NCBI GenBank assembly: GCA_021784815.1
Contig: JAJYHK010000016.1
Coordinates: 1 to 51,984, forward strand
Reading direction: 5' to 3'
DNA from: a bacterium
Lineage (GTDB): Bacteria; Patescibacteriota; Minisyncoccia; Phycocordibacterales; Phycocordibacteraceae
Length of the DNA: 51,984 bases
Shown: in pieces, positions 41,934 through 49,477 of the stretch
Numbering within the stretch: position 1 is the stretch's first letter
Layout of the letters: every line of letters begins with the position of its first letter
Program-made: the position numbers and the translations under genes
Notes under the pieces: generated by a model
What the model saw: only the letters and a program-made list of their open reading frames with translations
What the model was told of the DNA's origin: nothing
Database searches by the model: none

Positions 41934-42263
41934 TTAGTTAGTTTGCGGCACAAAGATCTGTCGGGTCTCGGTAACGGTCCTGCCGAACCGATCCGTGGCG
42001 GTGAAGGTCAGTATAGAGCTCCCTTGAGGGAGGGCGATGGTCTCTGAAAAGGACCCGTTCGTATCGGGAATGACCGGCGCACCGTCGATCGTGAGCGCGG
42101 TTGTGTTTGCGGCCTTGCCGGAGATGGTGAGGACGCCGGTTGCGATCGCGGTGTCATTCGTGGGGAAGGTGATGACGAGTTTTGGGCCGCGCAGGAGCGG
42201 CCAGCCTTCGATGAGGCTGTAGCCGAGGACGATGGCGAGCACGATGCCGAGGGCAGCGCGCAT
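41934..42263 (-). CDS. Small membrane-anchored Ig-like domain protein
   Basis: N-terminal TM segment; GPKLVITFP...ATDRFGR; packed between ftsK and recA. Confidence 0.75.
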
Positions 42264-42264
42264 A

Positions 42265-44481
42265 TCAAAAAGCGTCCTCCGGCGGTTCGTTGTCCGCAGG
42301 AACGGCCGCGTCGCCGCGCGAGAGCACCTCGCGGGGCTTCGAGCCATCGGCGGGGCCGATGATGCTCTTAGCCTCGAGTACGTCCATGAGGCGGGCGGCG
42401 CGGCTGTAGCCGATCTTGAGTTTGCGCTGGAGGTAGGAGGTCGAAGCGCGGCCGGCCTCTTCGACCGTCGCTCGCGCGTCCTCGTAGAGGTCGTCGTCGA
42501 CATCATCGTCATCGAGGTCTCCACTCACGAGCCCGATGACGTCGTTAGGTTCCACGTTCGTGCCGCCACCGAGATCGATGCTCAAGAGGTCTCCGGCGTT
42601 GTGGTTCTTTATGTAGCTCGCGAGTTTCTTTACTTCGGTCTCCGAGATGAACGCGGTCTGGAGGCGCACCGGTTTTTGCATATCGCTGCTGAGGTAGAGC
42701 ATGTCGCCGGCCCCAAGGAGGGTCTCAGCCCCGGAGCTGTCGAGGATGGTGCGCGAGTCGATCTGGCTCGCCACCTGGAGCGCCATGCGGGTCGGCACGT
42801 TTGCCTTTATAAGGCCCGTGATGACGTTTACGCTCGGGCGCTGGGTCGAGAGGAGGAGGTGGATGCCGACCGCGCGGCTCATTTGGGCGAGGCGCACGAC
42901 TGAGGCTTCGAGTTCGCGCGGGTAGGTCTGCATGATATCCGCGAGCTCGTCGATAACGATGACGATATATGGCATTGCTTCGGGCAGGTCATCGCCGCCT
43001 TTTTTCTTAGCCGGTTCATAGACGCTTGCGTGGTAGCTCGCGATGTCGCGTACCTGCTCCGTCTCGAGAATGTTGTAGCGGCGCTCCATTTCCTTTGCTG
43101 CCCACTTGAGCGAGAGGATTGCTTTCTTAGGGTCGGTAATGACCGGCGTGAGGAGGTGGGGGATGCCGTTGTAGAGCGTGAGCTCGACGCGCTTCGGGTC
43201 GATCATGATAAAGCGCAACTGGTTGGGATCGTTGCGGTAGAGAAGCGAAGCGACGATCGCGTGGATCGCGACTGATTTACCCGAGCCGGTCGCGCCCGCG
43301 ACGAGGCCGTGCGGCATCTTGGCAATATTCACGTAATGCGGCATGCCGGTGATATCGCGGCCGATAGCGGCAAGGAGCGGCTTGGTGCTGCTCGTCCATT
43401 CGGGGGCGGCAAGGAGTCCGCCGAGACCCACCATCGCTTTGACCGAGTTCGGCACCTCGATACCGACAAGCGACTTACCCGGGATCGGCGCTTCGATGCG
43501 TACCGGGTGCGCGGCGAGCGCGAGCTCAAGGTTGCTCGCGAGCGAGACGATCTTGGAGAGGCGGACGCCCTCGGCGGGCTTTACCGCGTAGCGCGTGACG
43601 GTCGGGCCGACGGAGACCTCGTCCATCTCGACACTGATGCCGAAGTTCTGGAAGGTGCGCTTGATGATGTTTGCGTTCGCGCGTATGTCGCCGGTGCCCG
43701 GCTTGCCTTTGTCCGTCCCGAGAATCGAGAGCGGCGGCGCCTCGTACTCTGCGCTGAAGTTCGTGATGCCCTGCGAGCGTTCGACCCCCTCGCTACGATT
43801 AAAAACGGTGACGACCGGTTCACACTCAGGCGTCGCCGTCACGAGTGCGTGTGCCGGCTCGTCTTCGTCAGGTGTTTCGTCCGGCTCTGTGTGCGGTGCT
43901 ATGCTGGTGTGCACGGCGAAGTCTCTATCTTCCTGCTCGTTTGCATCCCCGTAATCGCGGCGCGCCCGGAGCTGTTCTCGGAATCGGCGCGCCCGCTCGC
44001 TCAGGAATACGCCAACCGCCTCTATGTCGCTCACGATAGCAAGGCCGATCGCTATGATCGCGACGAGCAATACGAGCGCGCCCCAGAAGCCAAAGAAACC
44101 CTCGAGCGCGCTGCCGGCCCAAGTGCCCGCCTCGCCGCCGAAACGCGTACCGGGAAAGATGCCGGCGAAGGAGAGTACCGCGGCGGCAATAAGGATGATG
44201 CCCGAGGTGGCGAGCGGTTCAAAGAGCGTCAGGCGCAGTCCCGCGTAGACTCCGACCGCAATGAGCGCGAGCGGCAGTGCAAAGGCGCCGACGCCGACGA
44301 CCGCATAGCTCGCCTGGTAGGCGGCCGTGCCGACCGGACCAGCCGCACCAAAAATGGCGAGGAGGAAGAGGACGCCCGCTGCAAGGAGCACTACCGCAGA
44401 GGCGTAGCGGATGAGCGCGTCATAGCTCCGCACTTCTCGCTCCTTACGCGCTTTTGCGTTTTTCCCGTTCTTGCGACTCAT
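42265..44481 (-). CDS. ftsK: DNA translocase FtsK/SpoIIIE
   Basis: N-terminal TM segments, GATGSGKS, MIDPKRVEL, IDELAD and gamma domain STSYLQRKLKIGYSRAARL. Confidence 0.97.
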   Translation of the reverse strand: MSRKNGKNAKARKEREVRSYDALIRYASAVVLLAAGVLFLLAIFGAAGPVGTAAYQASYAVVGVGAFALPLALIAVGVYAGLRLTLFEPLATSGIILIAAAVLSFAGIFPGTRFGGEAGTWAGSALEGFFGFWGALVLLVAIIAIGLAIVSDIEAVGVFLSERARRFREQLRARRDYGDANEQEDRDFAVHTSIAPHTEPDETPDEDEPAHALVTATPECEPVVTVFNRSEGVERSQGITNFSAEYEAPPLSILGTDKGKPGTGDIRANANIIKRTFQNFGISVEMDEVSVGPTVTRYAVKPAEGVRLSKIVSLASNLELALAAHPVRIEAPIPGKSLVGIEVPNSVKAMVGLGGLLAAPEWTSSTKPLLAAIGRDITGMPHYVNIAKMPHGLVAGATGSGKSVAIHAIVASLLYRNDPNQLRFIMIDPKRVELTLYNGIPHLLTPVITDPKKAILSLKWAAKEMERRYNILETEQVRDIASYHASVYEPAKKKGGDDLPEAMPYIVIVIDELADIMQTYPRELEASVVRLAQMSRAVGIHLLLSTQRPSVNVITGLIKANVPTRMALQVASQIDSRTILDSSGAETLLGAGDMLYLSSDMQKPVRLQTAFISETEVKKLASYIKNHNAGDLLSIDLGGGTNVEPNDVIGLVSGDLDDDDVDDDLYEDARATVEEAGRASTSYLQRKLKIGYSRAARLMDVLEAKSIIGPADGSKPREVLSRGDAAVPADNEPPEDAF

Positions 44482-44563
44482 GACGGATTCATTGTATCAC
44501 CGAGTGATTTACTCTGTTTTTTCAATGCTTGCGGACATGGCGCGACCCCGTATACTGTCCGAT

Positions 44564-45403
44564 ATGGCTATGAGACAAGATCGGTCGGCAAACAAAAATA
44601 CGTCCGATACACGAATGTCTGAGACACGAACGCGAGAAGGAAATGGTAGTGATTTTGTCCTAGAAAAAAACATATTTTCAAATATTTTTGAAAAGGACAT
44701 ACGGCGTATATTCATATACAAGAAGGCGGAGCGCCTTGCGAAAGCCATTCATATGGTCTCGCCTGCTTTTGCCGACTCCGCTTCGTTGCGCAACCGCATT
44801 GACGCGATCGCGGTGGGTCTCATTGATGCGGCGGTCCGCTCGAGCGCGGCCGCGCGTACGGCGCTGTCGCGCGAGCTCTTGGCACTTTCGAGCGTGTTGT
44901 CGATCGCGCAGGCGAGCGGACTGCTCTCCATAATGAACGCCGACCTCATTGCCCGGGAGGCGCAGACGCTGCTCCAGGAAGTCGCCGCTTACGAAGAGCC
45001 GCGGCTTTTTTTGGATGAGGCGCCGACGATCGCGAGCATCGCGAAGAACGCGCCGCACGATGCATCGCGGCATGCGCCCCAGCGCGTGCATGGCGAACCC
45101 CGCGCCGCGCTACAGGGGCGTGCCTCTGGAGCGGCAGGTGCCGCCACCGTCCCTCCGGTGGGCGTGCCGCGCCCGGTGCCCGGCAGTGCTGATAAAGGAC
45201 ATTTCGAAGCGCATATTAAGGACAGACGTGATGCGGTGCTTGCGGTCATCCGAGAAAAGGGGGAGGCGAGTATAAAAGACATTTCGACACGATTCAGAGA
45301 CATATCAGAGAAGACGATTCAGCGAGAGCTTGTGGCGCTCGTGCAGTCGGGGGTTCTTGGTAAGCGCGGCGAGCGTCGCTGGAGCGTGTACTACGTGGCC
45401 TAG
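44564..45403 (+). CDS. N-terminal four-helix-bundle-like domain plus C-terminal winged-helix (DeoR-like) DNA-binding domain
   Basis: YKKAERLAKAIHMV helical domain; SIKDISTRFRDISEKTIQRELVALV wHTH; start chosen 7 nt after TATACT. Confidence 0.8.
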   Translation: MAMRQDRSANKNTSDTRMSETRTREGNGSDFVLEKNIFSNIFEKDIRRIFIYKKAERLAKAIHMVSPAFADSASLRNRIDAIAVGLIDAAVRSSAAARTALSRELLALSSVLSIAQASGLLSIMNADLIAREAQTLLQEVAAYEEPRLFLDEAPTIASIAKNAPHDASRHAPQRVHGEPRAALQGRASGAAGAATVPPVGVPRPVPGSADKGHFEAHIKDRRDAVLAVIREKGEASIKDISTRFRDISEKTIQRELVALVQSGVLGKRGERRWSVYYVA

Positions 45404-45703
45404 AGGTTTAAAAGGACAAAGACAAACCCGTTTCGGTTCATCGTAAAAGACACTGTCGACGCTCGTCTTTTGCTCGAAAATGAGCGTCCCGCTCGCTTAG
45501 CCGCAGCCGCTAGGCGCAGGCCGTTTTAGGCGGCGCGACGATTCAGCGGCGCCTTGTGCTGAAGGCGAGGCGCTCTCGTCGTTAGCGGGTAAGTTTTGAC
45601 GAGGCCGCCCGTCTCTGCTAATGTGCCGCGTGTGATAGCGACTGGGGTATAGGGGCGACTACGCGGCCGGTAACGGTCTCTTTTTCGTACCAAAACCTAG
45701 TTG

Positions 45704-45712
45704 TTATCCACA
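45704..45712 (+). promoter_or_regulatory. Consensus DnaA box
   Basis: TTATCCACA, a single intergenic copy. Confidence 0.45.
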
Positions 45713-45756
45713 TGGAGGCCAGGGAAGGGGAAGTTCACGCAAGCTATACTTTACCC

Positions 45757-46069
45757 AGTCCTTACGGGGACTTCCGATTCTCGGAGGGGCACTTTGATAA
45801 CTGAATAGCGCCGAGCACCACTTTTACGGCGCGACGCGGGAGTAGGACGCCGGTCGTCATGCTTTCGTTAATGAAGAGCCATTTTCACGAGAGGTGAAAG
45901 TGGCGTTAGGTCGTGCGGTGAAAGTGGTGCTCGGCACCAACCTTGCCAGCTAGCCCATTCCGCGCTGGTCGATACCGCGCGGGGTGGGATAGTGTGAACC
46001 TGAAACGGTGCGATGTGCGAATACGAAATTCGGATTATCACGGGCTCTTAAAAATACTTATTAATTGGT
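45757..46069 (+). ncRNA. Candidate structured 5' leader RNA of the S-layer-like gene
   Basis: TATACT at 45745-45750; boxA-like element; 18-bp stem 45810-45827/45918-45935 and further hairpins. Confidence 0.55.
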
Positions 46070-49000
46070 ATGCAAACGGTAACTAACAAAGCGGTCGCTA
46101 AGATCGCTGCGGTGGCGACCGGTCTTGCGATGGTCGCGTCTATCGGCTTCGCTCCTATGGCGAACGCCGCGACGCTCACCAGCTCGCAGATCCAGTCGAT
46201 CCTCTCGATGCTCTCCGCCTTCGGCGCGAACAGCTCGACGATCGCCAACGTCCAGGCTGCTCTCACAGGCCAGCCGACGACGGGCGGCACCACCACGGGC
46301 GGCTCTACTTCGGGCACGACGTCCGCATCCTGCACCTTCACGCGCAGTCTCACAACTGGCGACTCGGGCGCGGATGTGACCTGCCTCCAGAAGGCGCTCA
46401 TTGCTAACGGCTACGCTATCCCGGCCATCACGGCAGGTACGGCGAGCTACGGCTACTTCGGTGGCCAGACCAAGAAGGCGGTGATCGCCTGGCAGAAGGC
46501 GGCTGGCGTCTCTCCGGCGTTCGGCTACTTCGGTCCCATCTCGCGCGCGCACTGGAACCTCGGCGGTGGCTCGACCACCGGCACGGGAACCGGTACGGGC
46601 ACGGGTAGCGGCACAGGCACGACGACGGGTGCTGGCCTCTCGGTCTCGCTCTCAGCGACCAGCCCGAGCAACTCGGTTCTCGTCGCTGGTCAGGCTATTG
46701 GTGATCTCGCGGACTTCACGTTCACGAACTCCAGCGCCTCGCCGGTCAGCGTGACGGGCCTCACGTTTAACCGCATCGGTGTCAGCAATGACTCCACGAT
46801 GACGAACGTGTACCTCTACAACAACGGTACGCGCATTGCCGACTCGGCGGGCGTGAGCAACGGCCAGTTCTCCTGGAACAACACCTCGGGCCTCTTCACG
46901 GTTCCGGCAAACGGCTCCTACACGGTGTCGGTTCGCTCGGATATCTCGTCGGCAACGGGTACTGCTGGCCAGCAGATTGGCGTGAGCCTCGTCTCCGTCG
47001 CGACCAGCGGCACGCTTGCTTCGAATGTGAGCTTCCCGATTATGGGCGGCTACCAGACGATTTCGTCGGCTACGCTCGCTACGGTCAGCTATGGTGGCAA
47101 CACCACGCCTGGCGCAACGACGATCAGCCCACAGAATGACTACCCGGTTTGGCAGAACACGATCTCGGTTTCCACCAACCCGGTGAAGCTGACCTCGATC
47201 ATGTTCACCAACCTGGGCTCGATTGACGGGCAGTACCTCACCAATCTTCGCCTCTATGTGGACGGCGTACAGGTTGGCTCGGCGGTGCCGTCGATGTCGA
47301 ACAGCCGCACGGTCACCTTCGACCTTTCGGCGAATCCGGTGCTGCTGTCGACGCAGAGCCATGTCGTGAAGGTTCTCGCTAACATCACGGGCGGCGCGGA
47401 TCGTACAGTGCAGTTTTCGGTGCAGCGCGCGTCTGACGCAATGTTCGTGGACAGCCAGCTCAACCAGCCGGTTACGCCTGAATACAACGGCGGAACCTTC
47501 AAGATGGTCAGCTCTGGTGTTATCACGATGAACTCGGTTTCGGGTACGAGCGGTGTGTCGGTTTCTATCGACCCAGCTTCACCGAACCAGAACATCGCGG
47601 TCGGTGCTACGAACGTAGACATGGCGAACTTCGACATGCTCGCCTCGGGCGAGAATGTGAAGGTCAGCGACCTCTACGTTTACGCATCTACAACGGCTAG
47701 CGGCGGTCTTCAGAACGGCAAGATCATGGTCAATGGTGTCCAGGTAGGCTCTACCAAGAACATTGGTAGCAGCGTATCGGGCGACACTGACTTCTCGCTC
47801 GGTTCCTCACTCATCCTTCCGGCTGGGCAGACCACGGTTGTAAGTGTCTACGCGGATGCAAAGGATACGAGCGGTGGCAATCTTGCCAACAACTCGACCG
47901 TTCGCATTTGGTTGGCTGCGGGCAGCAGCAATGCCCAGGGTCAGTCGTCGCTTAATACGACGAATGTCCCGGGTTCTGCTACAAGCGGCAATCTGCTCAC
48001 GGTAACCAACTCATCGCTCCTGGCGACGAAGTACACCGGTTACGGTAATCAGTCAGTTGTTCCGGGTGCGCAGAATGCGAAGATTGGTTCCTTCACGCTC
48101 TCGGCAGGTTCTACGGAAGGGGTGACGGTCAACACGATCGGCATCACTATCCCGAATCATTCGGGAGACCTCACGAACCTTACGCTCAAGAACGACGCGA
48201 CGGGTGCGTTGCTTGGCACCGTCATCACGACGCCGTCCTCGAGCAACTCGTTTGCGGTGAACCTCGACATCCCGGCTTCGCAATCGGTGACAGTTGATGT
48301 CTATGCAAACGTACTCTCGAATGCCACTAACGGTGACCAGATCACGGCAGAAGTCGATACGACGACGACGGGTTCTGGAGACGTAACCGGCACTCAGGCT
48401 ACGATTGGGTCGGCAGTTTCGCTCCAGACCATGACGGTCGGTGCGGGTAGCCTTACGGTTACCACGGGCGCGAATAATCCAGTGAGCACGAACTATGTCG
48501 CTGGGTCGACGATGGATCCGGTCGGCGAGTTCAACTTCGCGGCCCAGAACTCGTCGTACACGGTGCAGAACCTCGCGGTCCTCGTCCCGAACAATGCGGC
48601 GACGTCGGTCACGAGCGTGACGCTCCAGTACACGGATGTGAATGGCGCAACGCAGACGGTCTCGCAGCCGCTCCAGGTTGTTGCGGGCGACAAGTACGCA
48701 ACAGCAACCTTCTCGGGTCTCACGATGTACGTCCCGGCCAACGACTCGTCTAACGTAGACGTCTTCGTCGGTATCCCGACGATCGCTTCGGGGGCAACCT
48801 CGGGTACGCCGATTAGTGTGACGCTTGACAGTGGTGTGTCTGACACGTACTTCCGTGCAGTCAACAGCGCTGGTAACCAGCTCACCTCGATTAGCGGCAA
48901 CGTTGCGGCTGGCAGTTCGTTCTACGTCCGCAAGTCCATCCCAACCTTCGCGGTCGTACCGACGAACCTCACGGTTCCGGCTTCCGGCTCTCCGCTCTAC

Positions 49001-49477
49001 AAGTTCAGCATCACTGCTGACCCTGCCGGCGCGGTTGAGTGGACGCAGTTGACCTTCAACGTCTCGGCTTCGGGCATGAAGGGTGTCTCGGGTCTCTACC
49101 TCACTGATGATTCGACGGGCAACAGCCTCCTCGACTCGACGGTTGGTACGACGACAAGCGGCACGGCGGTGATTAACCTCCTCAACAACAACCCTGCAAC
49201 GCATCCGCAGTACCAGCAGGTTGCCGCAGGTGCAACCAAGACTTACGATCTCTATGGAAACGTAAGTGGCTTCACCACGGGTTCGACGCTCACGATCAGC
49301 CTCGCGTCTGATTCGACGGCGTCGAGCACGAACAATACTGCGGCAGCCATGGCTGCAAGTAACAACGTTGTCTGGTCTGACCGCTCGGCGAATAATCACT
49401 CGATTACGACCCACGACTGGACCAACGGCTATCTCCTCAAGAACTTCAGCAGCTCGGCAGTCAGCTACTCCAAGTAG
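46070..49477 (+). CDS. Large secreted Ser/Thr-rich S-layer-like protein with a peptidoglycan-binding domain
   Basis: Signal peptide; CTFTRSL...GADVTCLQ...GYFGGQT; repeated beta-sandwich-like units. Confidence 0.88.
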   Translation: MQTVTNKAVAKIAAVATGLAMVASIGFAPMANAATLTSSQIQSILSMLSAFGANSSTIANVQAALTGQPTTGGTTTGGSTSGTTSASCTFTRSLTTGDSGADVTCLQKALIANGYAIPAITAGTASYGYFGGQTKKAVIAWQKAAGVSPAFGYFGPISRAHWNLGGGSTTGTGTGTGTGSGTGTTTGAGLSVSLSATSPSNSVLVAGQAIGDLADFTFTNSSASPVSVTGLTFNRIGVSNDSTMTNVYLYNNGTRIADSAGVSNGQFSWNNTSGLFTVPANGSYTVSVRSDISSATGTAGQQIGVSLVSVATSGTLASNVSFPIMGGYQTISSATLATVSYGGNTTPGATTISPQNDYPVWQNTISVSTNPVKLTSIMFTNLGSIDGQYLTNLRLYVDGVQVGSAVPSMSNSRTVTFDLSANPVLLSTQSHVVKVLANITGGADRTVQFSVQRASDAMFVDSQLNQPVTPEYNGGTFKMVSSGVITMNSVSGTSGVSVSIDPASPNQNIAVGATNVDMANFDMLASGENVKVSDLYVYASTTASGGLQNGKIMVNGVQVGSTKNIGSSVSGDTDFSLGSSLILPAGQTTVVSVYADAKDTSGGNLANNSTVRIWLAAGSSNAQGQSSLNTTNVPGSATSGNLLTVTNSSLLATKYTGYGNQSVVPGAQNAKIGSFTLSAGSTEGVTVNTIGITIPNHSGDLTNLTLKNDATGALLGTVITTPSSSNSFAVNLDIPASQSVTVDVYANVLSNATNGDQITAEVDTTTTGSGDVTGTQATIGSAVSLQTMTVGAGSLTVTTGANNPVSTNYVAGSTMDPVGEFNFAAQNSSYTVQNLAVLVPNNAATSVTSVTLQYTDVNGATQTVSQPLQVVAGDKYATATFSGLTMYVPANDSSNVDVFVGIPTIASGATSGTPISVTLDSGVSDTYFRAVNSAGNQLTSISGNVAAGSSFYVRKSIPTFAVVPTNLTVPASGSPLYKFSITADPAGAVEWTQLTFNVSASGMKGVSGLYLTDDSTGNSLLDSTVGTTTSGTAVINLLNNNPATHPQYQQVAAGATKTYDLYGNVSGFTTGSTLTISLASDSTASSTNNTAAAMAASNNVVWSDRSANNHSITTHDWTNGYLLKNFSSSAVSYSK

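Follow-up and report, generated by a model that had tools for sequence, protein, structure and literature searches.

A short word repeated through a winged-helix gene beside ftsK in Patescibacteria: a candidate autoregulatory array

Repeat arrays over a regulator's own promoter, and operators within coding sequence, are both known kinds of bacterial control element. The looping repressors LacI (operator O2 in lacZ), GalR (an internal operator in galE) and DeoR use auxiliary operators in coding sequence, and omega of pSM19035 (7-bp heptads in either orientation), ParR-parC, TubR-tubC and AspA are array-binding autorepressors or centromere proteins. BlaI/MecI and the ArsR-type proteins are small autoregulated repressors, and the Spo0A 0A boxes in B. 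subtilis oriC and the CtrA sites in Caulobacter Cori overlap DnaA boxes. Here we describe a locus that shares traits with several of these systems. It lies in a 51,984-nt stretch of DNA from a patescibacterium (contig JAJYHK010000016.1 of assembly GCA_021784815.1, C19 in our numbering; "the window" below means this whole stretch), in which a gene for a protein with a winged helix-turn-helix (wHTH) domain, divergent from ftsK, carries about eight copies of a 9-10-base word. Unlike the repeats of omega, ParR, TubR and AspA, which form one upstream block, these are spread across ~900 bp of coding DNA. The array is genuine: it is under selection as DNA and is not a by-product of the protein. We propose, with a probability of roughly 0.55 and from sequence comparison, that a lineage-specific and probably oligomeric repressor binds this array, autoregulating its own gene and controlling one further locus.

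Hardly any work has addressed gene regulation in the ultra-small Patescibacteria. The LexA regulon of this phylum has reportedly been the subject of a comparative study. A literature search at the level of abstracts, which left subscription journals uncovered, returned no paper on the wHTH family, the word or the DnaA boxes of Patescibacteria.

The word and its conservation

The source genome consists of 771,135 bases in 19 contigs with 58% G+C, and the wHTH gene is single-copy in it. The features of the locus, in window coordinates, are the following.

44529 to 44556, + strand: putative promoter of the wHTH gene (TTGCGG, 16 nt, TATACT), from sequence and conservation
44556 to 44564, − strand: candidate operator TGTCCGATA, joined to the last base of the −10 box
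44570 to 45403, + strand: wHTH gene, 277 aa from the conserved ATG; the open reading frame (ORF) has its stop at 45403
44601 to 44624, − strand: weak copies CGTCCGATA at 44601 and TGTCTGAGA at 44616, in the part encoding the N-terminal tail
44656 to 44664, − strand: copy TGTCCTAGA, beneath the codons of D-F-V-L-E
44691 to 44699, + strand: copy AAAAGGACA, beneath the codons of F-E-K-D-I
45193 to 45281, + strand: 3' cluster of TAAAGGACA at 45193 (D-K-G-H), TTAAGGACA at 45216 (I-K-D-R) and TAAAAGACA at 45273 (S-I-K-D-I)
45410 to 45452, + strand: non-coding downstream copies, AAAAGGACA at 45410 with an overlapping AAGACA at 45418, and TAAAAGACA at 45444

The start was taken as the ATG at 44570 because most homologues begin at the matching residue; the in-frame ATGs at 44537 and 44564 are unconserved as starts. 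A preliminary description of this DNA had reported ten 9-mers here with the consensus TAWMRGACA. All ten are present where it placed them, and the consensus is close to the word that we refined from 281 copies in variable regions, a-T-A-[A/T]-A-G-G-A-C-A, which is asymmetric and 9-10 bases long. The copy at 44616 deviates from this refined core.

The word is strongly concentrated at the locus. WWAARGACA occurs 42 times on the two strands of the 771,135-base genome, and six of these copies, all on the + strand, fall in 44691-45452. When 44529-45452 was shuffled 2000 times with dinucleotides preserved, the observed six copies were never attained (mean 0.02), nor were the observed eight of ARGACA (mean 0.46). 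With eight copies each of ARGACA and WARGACA, the locus is the genome's top 1-kb window for both words, the runner-up independent loci holding five and four copies, respectively; the density peak expected of an array was thus found. The 13-mer AARGACATTTCGA occurs twice genome-wide, both times in the 3' cluster of the wHTH gene. Because a motif-blind control was unimpressive, the window alone is insufficient to decide whether the array is genuine, and conservation in orthologues decides.

We compared 73 orthologous genes out of 80 loci fetched. ARGACA was found at 7.24 per kb in the gene and its close flanks (567 sites in 78,342 nt) and at 0.76 per kb elsewhere in the same loci (377 sites in 493,867 nt), a 9.5-fold ratio, with a median of 8 copies per locus (range 4-14). 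The copies recur at fixed positions. Measured from the F codon of FEKDI, the 5' positions are −130 (− strand), −94 (+), −31 (−) and +7 (+), and the 3' positions are about +450 to +470 (+, often two copies 11 nt apart), +499 (+) and +556 (+). The FEKDI site is occupied in 68 of the 73 loci, the DFVLE site in 46 and the promoter-region site in 58; in the 3' cluster, at least two + strand sites are present in 68 loci and at least three in 52. Six of the ten copies in the window (44556, 44656, 44691, 45193, 45216 and 45273) belong to these conserved positional classes. The remaining four are more restricted: CGTCCGATA recurs in one orthologous locus (L001), where TGTCTGAGA is also found with its offset from the FEKDI anchor shifted, and neither was seen in the other orthologues listed; the downstream copies at 45410 and 45444 are lineage-specific, a + strand copy within 150 nt past the stop being present in only 8/73 loci. 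Conversely, the N-terminal tail of most orthologues contains D-K/I-G-H encoded as GAT A[AT]A GGA CAC on the + strand (55/73 loci, GGA in 98%), which the window lacks.

Could the copies simply be the codons of the K-D, K-G-H and D-F-V-L-E residues, supplemented by chance matches in AT-richer patches? The unremarkable motif-blind control speaks for this explanation, and so does the finding that three of the four intragenic + strand copies are E/I-K-D codons in one phase, at residues conserved in the family. Taking the copies for mere codons of conserved residues was in fact our first reading, and it was overturned by codon bias and an entropy test in the orthologues. In DFVLE, 93% of the orthologues encode V by GTC (33% gene-wide) and 71% encode L by CTA (8% gene-wide). 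The E-K-D-I part of FEKDI is encoded as GAA-AAG-GAC-ATA, with GAA in 100%, GAC in 100% and ATA in 85% (56%, 54% and 43% gene-wide). The glycine of KGH is GGA in 95% against 39% gene-wide, CTA and GGA being otherwise rare codons, and ATA-AAG-GAC codons predominate at the 45216 and 45273 sites. Synonymous positions are thus fixed beneath the copies, whereas other invariant residues (Y61, L114 and E141 in 288-aa numbering) vary their codons freely. Among 100 conserved degenerate columns, the loss of codon entropy was 0.66 bits at the 14 codons beneath the motif and 0.24 bits at the other 86, a difference matched by only 5 of 20,000 random codon sets.

The reading frames point the same way. The preliminary description held that the copies lie in different frames; this is weak in the window, where the three E/I-K-D copies share the phase AAR GAC A, and it holds across the orthologues, where + strand copies in phases 0, 1 and 2 number 30, 230 and 143. 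Copies also lie in the regions encoding the disordered tail and linker, in non-coding DNA and within a second gene, cca (at S-K-G codons), and the word is kept in homologues of 29% identity. The argument that protein constraint does not account for the array therefore stood, on fixed synonymous codons, three phases and the same word in diverged homologues, and an explanation without any element is hardly credible.

Synonymous sites are also conserved in the 32-nt spacer that separates the −31 from the +7 copy (44665-44690), where the consensus is AGCATATTTAAYAACATATTTGAA and the isoleucine at 44672 is ATA in 72/72 orthologues. The element may be a block of ~50 bp here and not two separate 9-mers. 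A second patch of synonymous constraint lies away from the motif copies, at 44885-44900, where the codons of L-S-S-V-L-S are biased: S119 is AGC in 66% against 17% gene-wide, and the codons of L117, S118 and L121 are biased too.

The 5' copies on the − strand are the reverse complement of the 3' copies, and the −31/+7 pair would enclose a 32-nt loop. One might thus suppose that the word acts in RNA, a 5' UGUCCU pairing with a downstream AGGACA or an RNA-binding protein reading the mRNA. The −31/+7 pair shows no covariation, however: where the +7 site reads AAGACA, the −31 site has a mismatching C in 14 loci and a pairing T in 4, and by our tally the T fraction of ~22% is about equal when +7 is AGGACA. 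Promoter spacers and the DNA 5' of −10 boxes also contain copies, in either orientation, and further copies lie where convergent genes end. An action in RNA is very improbable.

Since the 73 close loci are kin, diverged homologues are the stronger evidence. We collected 12 loci from other genera and families, with 27-31% identity over the full length or a match to the wHTH only. Summed over them, 76 ARGACA sites fall in the 15.4 kb of gene and close flanks and 32 in the 28.3 kb beyond; over AAAGGACA, the linkers of these homologues have K-G-H, I-G-H or K-G-Q. In a sample of 201 genomes of the class, AAGGACA-N2-30-AAGGACA occurs in or beside the homologue gene in 9 genomes of 5 families, the positions of double motif and homologue having been compared by hand. 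There is also a hint in two distant homologues that changes in the wing or recognition helix go alongside changes in the flank of the GGACA core.

The family to which these genes belong is widespread within the lineage. Strong matches were present in 79 of 83 sampled genomes of the window's own genus in the Genome Taxonomy Database (GTDB). The FtsK match was likewise missing from the other four, and the whole region is therefore probably unassembled there. Two sister genera have weaker homologues of the full architecture in 30/33 and 4/4 genomes, and 66 of 201 genomes in the class sample (E ≤1e-8) and 7 of 301 in a phylum sample (E ≤1e-10) gave a match. Relatives at E ≤0.001 made up 1587 of 8000 scored candidates, the best with 54-73% identity. 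A profile search of 1.84 billion representatives returned 2915 clusters (50% identity) at E ≤1e-10, of which the best 150 are mostly 220-320 aa; a search of the ESM Atlas returned only the protein's own family. Members are mostly annotated as hypothetical.

The promoter and the protein

A pattern TTG[CA]-N16-19-TA[TG]A[ACT]T was found upstream of the gene in 58 of 72 orthologous loci. A generic sigma-70 scan did not flag the wHTH promoter, and the call of a putative promoter is based on this conservation. The motif core is joined to the −10 box in 59 of the 72 loci: in 48 as TATACTGTCY, the form seen in the window at 44551-44564, and in 11 as ARGACA directly 5' of the −10. A site thus overlaps the gene's own predicted core promoter, as in autoregulated repressors. 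The ATG follows 5-22 nt past the −10 in 48/72 loci, and with so short a distance the mRNA probably has little or no leader. A search for sequencing runs that contain the locus listed 8 DNA entries from 4 studies and no RNA run.

The AlphaFold2 model, based on 88 sequences, consists of a disordered tail (residues 1-30), four helices at 32-141 (pLDDT >90), a disordered linker (142-212) and a wHTH at 213-277, in agreement with the four-helix bundle, flexible linker and wHTH that had been anticipated from sequence. The most invariant parts are the predicted recognition helix SEKTIQRE and the wing GERRWS, both retained at ~29% identity.

Assignment to a described family was less clear. Pfam HTH_DeoR (PF08220) matched at 20.4-20.5 bits against a cut-off of 21 and was a weak match in all 88 aligned members (best E 7.3e-6). 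The C-terminal sugar-phosphate-binding domain of the DeoR architecture is absent; the HTH is itself C-terminal (213-277) and the bundle has no Pfam match. ArsR/SmtB models scored 16.7-16.8 bits against cut-offs of 55 and 97, HTH_5 matched weakly in 7 of the 88 members, and BlaI/MecI Penicillinase_R (PF03965) reached 15 bits against 22.6, with the domain order reversed. The ParB N-terminal domain gave no match in the protein. Iteron-binding Rep initiators have two tandem winged-helix domains and iterons of 17-22 bp; here one wHTH is joined to a helical bundle and the repeat unit is 9-10 bp. PF05635 (Avd/S23) was neither among the Pfam matches of the window protein nor among the 25 of 54 families listed for the 88 members. 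By structure, residues 39-147 matched 2rld, 2gsc, 8ub7_B and 4dwl_A with Z scores of 14.1, 13.0, 12.5 and 12.2, a range that is possibly generic for bundles. No solved structure matched by sequence below E 0.03 (PDB 1p6r, E 0.03), and Foldseek gave no match at E ≤0.001. A likeness of the wHTH to the centromere binders TubR and AspA was weak (Foldseek E ~0.04).

The second locus, the neighbourhood and the chromosome

A scan with a position weight matrix (PWM) built from copies of the word placed five of the nine best matches in the window's genome (G000 in our numbering) at C17:43007-46402, a locus that the preliminary description had missed, and four large-contig genomes of the genus have the same two hot spots. 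In one of them (G001, with a 640-kb contig), the two loci contain 9 of the 16 PWM matches at ≥14.5 bits and 7 of the 8 at ≥16 bits. The second locus holds tRNA genes, cca (CCA-adding enzyme), xth (exonuclease III) and a xerC/D-like integrase gene; Rfam identified only the tRNAs. Across 71 cca loci, three copies lie within cca at fixed positions, and the S-K-G codons of cca are TCT AAA GGA at 73/95/84% against 21/52/24% gene-wide.

Directly 3' of the xth stop, 46 of the 71 cca loci read TA[A/T]AGGACA (TAAAGGACA, 1-2 copies)-N3-5-TGTGGATAA-N0-2-TGTCCTTTA (1-2 copies). On the xth strand this is a perfect DnaA box, TTATCCACA, then ~30 nt with two copies of the word and then a −10 of the TAGTAT or TACTAT type; this promoter is directed into the 400-550 bp gap between cca and xth. 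Upstream of cca, by a tRNA gene, TGTCCT is joined to TTATCCCCA and followed by 1-2 further DnaA-like boxes. At least two boxes lie within 150 nt in 28 of 60 loci, with the word beside the boxes in 26 of those 28, and the strict TGTCCT/box pattern has a single match in the whole G001 contig, at the second locus.

This interleaving bears on the question of which protein reads the word. A different factor (DnaA, a DnaA partner or another regulator) might do so, the wHTH gene being its most targeted gene. The word brackets or joins DnaA-type boxes at the second locus, in the 46/71 cca loci and at TGTCCT-TTATCCCCA, and it shares five of nine positions with TTATCCACA. Set against this, the arrays lie within the coding sequence (CDS) of wHTH family members from different genera and families, no second candidate gene shows a link to both loci, and the box cluster beside dnaA (C17:3-4.2 kb) is without a high-scoring copy of the word. 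Where the gene of a DNA-binding protein carries the sites, autoregulation is the common case. We therefore regard a different reader as unlikely, if a serious contender.

The gap between the convergent genes cca and xth has features of its own (G000:C17:46037-46414, which is 5037-5414 of L081, the cca locus of this genome, and in the cca loci of other genomes, L089-L168). It has the inward promoter, a boxA-like TTGTTCTTTGATTGC and a 3' hairpin GCCGCCC...GGGCGGCTTTT, is without an Rfam family, and probably encodes an unannotated RNA of ~250-350 nt. Palindromes of the type GTTCCACGTGGAAC or GTTTCACGTGAAAC recur past the cca stop in the gap, often paired, in many genomes (loci L089-L168). At the other side of cca, DnaA-like boxes TTATCCCCA, TAATCCACA and ATATCCACA and partial ones occupy G000:C17:42950-43060 (L081:1950-2060), between a UPF0102 gene and a tRNA gene and ~39 kb from dnaA. 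This stretch ties with the dnaA-adjacent region as the densest window of DnaA boxes in the genome, and it is a possible origin or DnaA-titration site.

The neighbourhood of the wHTH gene is as follows.

42265 to 44481, − strand: ftsK (Pfam FtsK_SpoIIIE 2.1e-60, FtsK_alpha and FtsK_gamma), divergent neighbour of the wHTH gene
45704 to 45712, + strand: perfect DnaA box TTATCCACA, then, 32 nt on, a TATACT −10 at 45745-45750
46070 to 49477: large secreted protein gene, with its leader and promoter at 45704-46069

The gene order ftsK, wHTH gene, secreted protein gene was shared by 74-77 of the 80 close loci and by 10 of the 12 diverged ones; by tblastn, FtsK was encoded upstream on the opposite strand in 77/80 orthologous loci, and it was present at 10/12 loci of the diverged homologues. 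ftsK itself belongs to a kept block of recA, a small gene and ftsK; the small gene (41934-42524, 196-aa ORF as listed) was kept in 70/80 loci. No partner NTPase gene (TubZ/ParA) adjoins the wHTH gene, the neighbours being ftsK and the secreted protein gene.

The preliminary description had drawn attention to a DnaA box near the wHTH gene. The box is there, ~300 bp downstream. Going by the genome-wide count of perfect boxes, 8 against ~6 expected, it looked like a chance match; yet a perfect + strand box lies within 700 nt past the wHTH stop in 73/73 loci and in 7 of the 12 diverged loci. As a sign of an origin it did not hold up. The spacing from the box to the TATACT-like hexamer is fixed across loci, and a hairpin and then a boxA-like CGTACTTTGATAACTGAATAG follow the TATACT. 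Because it stands ~32 nt before a −10, with the hairpin and boxA-like motif after it, we take the box to be part of the next gene's promoter and leader.

Within that leader (45704-46069) we noted the hairpin AGTCCTTACGGGGACT, the boxA-like CACTTTGATAACTGAATAG at 45790-45808 and a second conserved block at 45935-46005, an arrangement suggesting that this long gene is activated through its DnaA box and transcribed with antitermination. A separate unit lies directly after the wHTH gene at 45596-45690: TTGACG-17 nt-TAATGT, ~60 nt beginning with GTGATAGCGACTGGGGTATAGGGG, and a hairpin GGCCGGTAACGGTC with a T run. It is kept in most orthologous loci and may be a short RNA or an attenuator; structure support was found for the terminator hairpin only (5 pairs, 2 with compensatory changes). 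Rfam gave no match to this unit and no family in 45380-46100.

In chromosomal terms the wHTH locus is neither origin nor terminus. dnaA is on a different contig of the window's genome, and the GC skew across the window is weak. In the four large-contig genomes the two loci flank dnaA, with the wHTH gene at a distance of 53-86 kb and the second locus at 24-60 kb on the opposite side. In G001 the cumulative GC skew is lowest over a broad plateau at 60-95 kb, which includes both dnaA (at 66 kb) and the second locus (at 90-92 kb); the wHTH gene, at 7 kb, is outside it. An origin or terminus at the wHTH locus was thus left unsupported, by the distance from dnaA and the weak skew. Two other candidates were rejected. 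KOPS-like guide words for FtsK would be spread genome-wide, and this word is confined to two loci. A dif/Xer site, an idea raised by the xerC/D-like gene adjoining the second locus, does not fit inverted arms that are at least 14 nt apart and enclose a DnaA box, nor a second locus inside the plateau of the skew minimum.

The preliminary description had favoured a centromere-like or chromosome-organising role. In a widened form of this idea, the arrays would nucleate a multivalent protein by which the origin-proximal chromosome is organised or positioned, or DnaA is gated at an origin-like box cluster, with effects on transcription being secondary. There is something to say for it: multi-copy arrays in both orientations lie at exactly two loci flanking dnaA in the four genomes, the word abuts 2-3 DnaA-like boxes by the tRNA gene in 26 of 28 multi-box loci, the box cluster shares the skew-minimum plateau of G001 with dnaA, ftsK is a constant neighbour, and the fold has its weak likeness to AspA and TubR. 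Since the four genomes share a genus and gene order, the flanking geometry counts as a single observation, and dnaA and the second locus cannot be told apart by GC skew. The genome has a canonical ParB-like gene of its own elsewhere (G000:C3:11928, 92.3 bits), the wHTH gene has no adjacent NTPase partner, and the locus is neither origin nor terminus. The overlap of copies with promoter cores is a sign of transcriptional control. We consider the organising role quite improbable.

A proposed mechanism and comparison with known systems

The word, its enrichment and fixed positions, the selection on synonymous sites, the overlap with the promoter, the co-occurrence with the family and the predicted fold are directly supported. 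From these we infer the wHTH protein as reader, repression, and oligomerisation or looping. It is most likely the wHTH protein itself that recognises the word (A)TA(A/T)AGGACA. Repression is suggested by the placement at the −10 box, the copies at a second promoter, the association with the family, and the parallel constancy of the predicted reading surface and the word; multivalent, cooperative binding is suggested by the many intragenic copies and the helical bundle.

In the proposed mechanism, the ~8 copies comprise one joined to the −10 box, 3-4 in the first 130 bp of the transcript and 3-4 in the last 200 bp of the CDS. Several wHTH domains joined via the helical bundle would fill these sites cooperatively, and occupancy of the copy joined to the −10 would block RNA polymerase, resulting in autorepression. 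The intragenic copies would be auxiliary operators that raise local occupancy; possibly they form bridges between the 5' and 3' clusters, which are separated by ~500-590 bp, or serve as roadblocks. At cca/xth, the same protein would bind the 2-3 copies between or beside the DnaA box in the promoter and repress it, possibly competing with DnaA.

Several observations weigh against this mechanism. In the motif-blind control, the commonest 7-mer of the 924-bp locus has 4 copies, and 957 of 1640 windows reached at least 4 copies of one 7-mer, with GC-rich words. The 73 loci are kin and not independent, all strong orthologues belonging to one very large GTDB genus. The copies are off a strict helical register, with spacing peaks at 11-12, 33 and 57 nt and many other values. 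The composite of motif and DnaA box (AGGACA-N1-9-TGKGGATA) was present in 14 of 201 class genomes against ~10 for the control and is not enriched. Finally, the copies inside cca are 1.4 kb from the nearest promoter and are unexplained by simple repression.

A broader role is conceivable, though rather unlikely: the protein could be a hitherto unknown DnaA-linked chromosome regulator of Paceibacteria that assembles on two arrays flanking dnaA, sets its own level through the one in its gene and, from a place on or next to DnaA boxes, gates replication initiation or DnaA-dependent transcription. If so, the second array may be a true origin or a DnaA-titrating locus, and the place beside ftsK and recA would tie the protein to the cell cycle.

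The family gains a candidate word and, with it, two loci as a set of candidate targets. Some of its peptides look like translated binding sites, namely K-G-H and K-D in the tail and linker and, perhaps, the invariant stretch DFVLEK..FEKDI; this bears on how "conserved residues" are to be read. The interleaving with DnaA boxes offers an entry point to the control of replication and of DnaA in organisms that so far cannot be cultured alone.

Among known systems, the array shares with Spo0A and CtrA a short word of a second factor interleaved with DnaA boxes; the wHTH protein is no response regulator, and the box cluster is only a candidate origin. The best C-terminal sequence matches are to BlaI/MecI and ArsR-type proteins (1p6r, E 0.03; Penicillinase_R, 15 bits), but the scores are below cut-offs, the wHTH is C-terminal and its bundle partner has no Pfam family. 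For the bundle, the Avd/S23 structures (2rld, 2gsc, 4dwl and 8ub7) are the top structural matches, with no sequence signal; Avd forms homo-oligomers. As with omega, ParR, TubR and AspA, short direct and inverted repeats lie over the gene's own promoter, and TubR and AspA are winged-helix proteins too, whereas the present system is chromosomal, with no adjacent NTPase and a separate ParB in the genome. Like LacI, GalR and DeoR, it has an operator at the promoter, more copies hundreds of bp away in the gene and a presumed oligomer. It differs from them in having ~8 copies of a short asymmetric word instead of 2-3 palindromes, in placing the sites in the regulator's own CDS, where they shape the K-G-H and K-D peptides, and in a protein without their effector domain. 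What is unusual, compared with all of these, is an array written through the regulator's own CDS so that it shapes the peptide, together with its interleaving with DnaA boxes.

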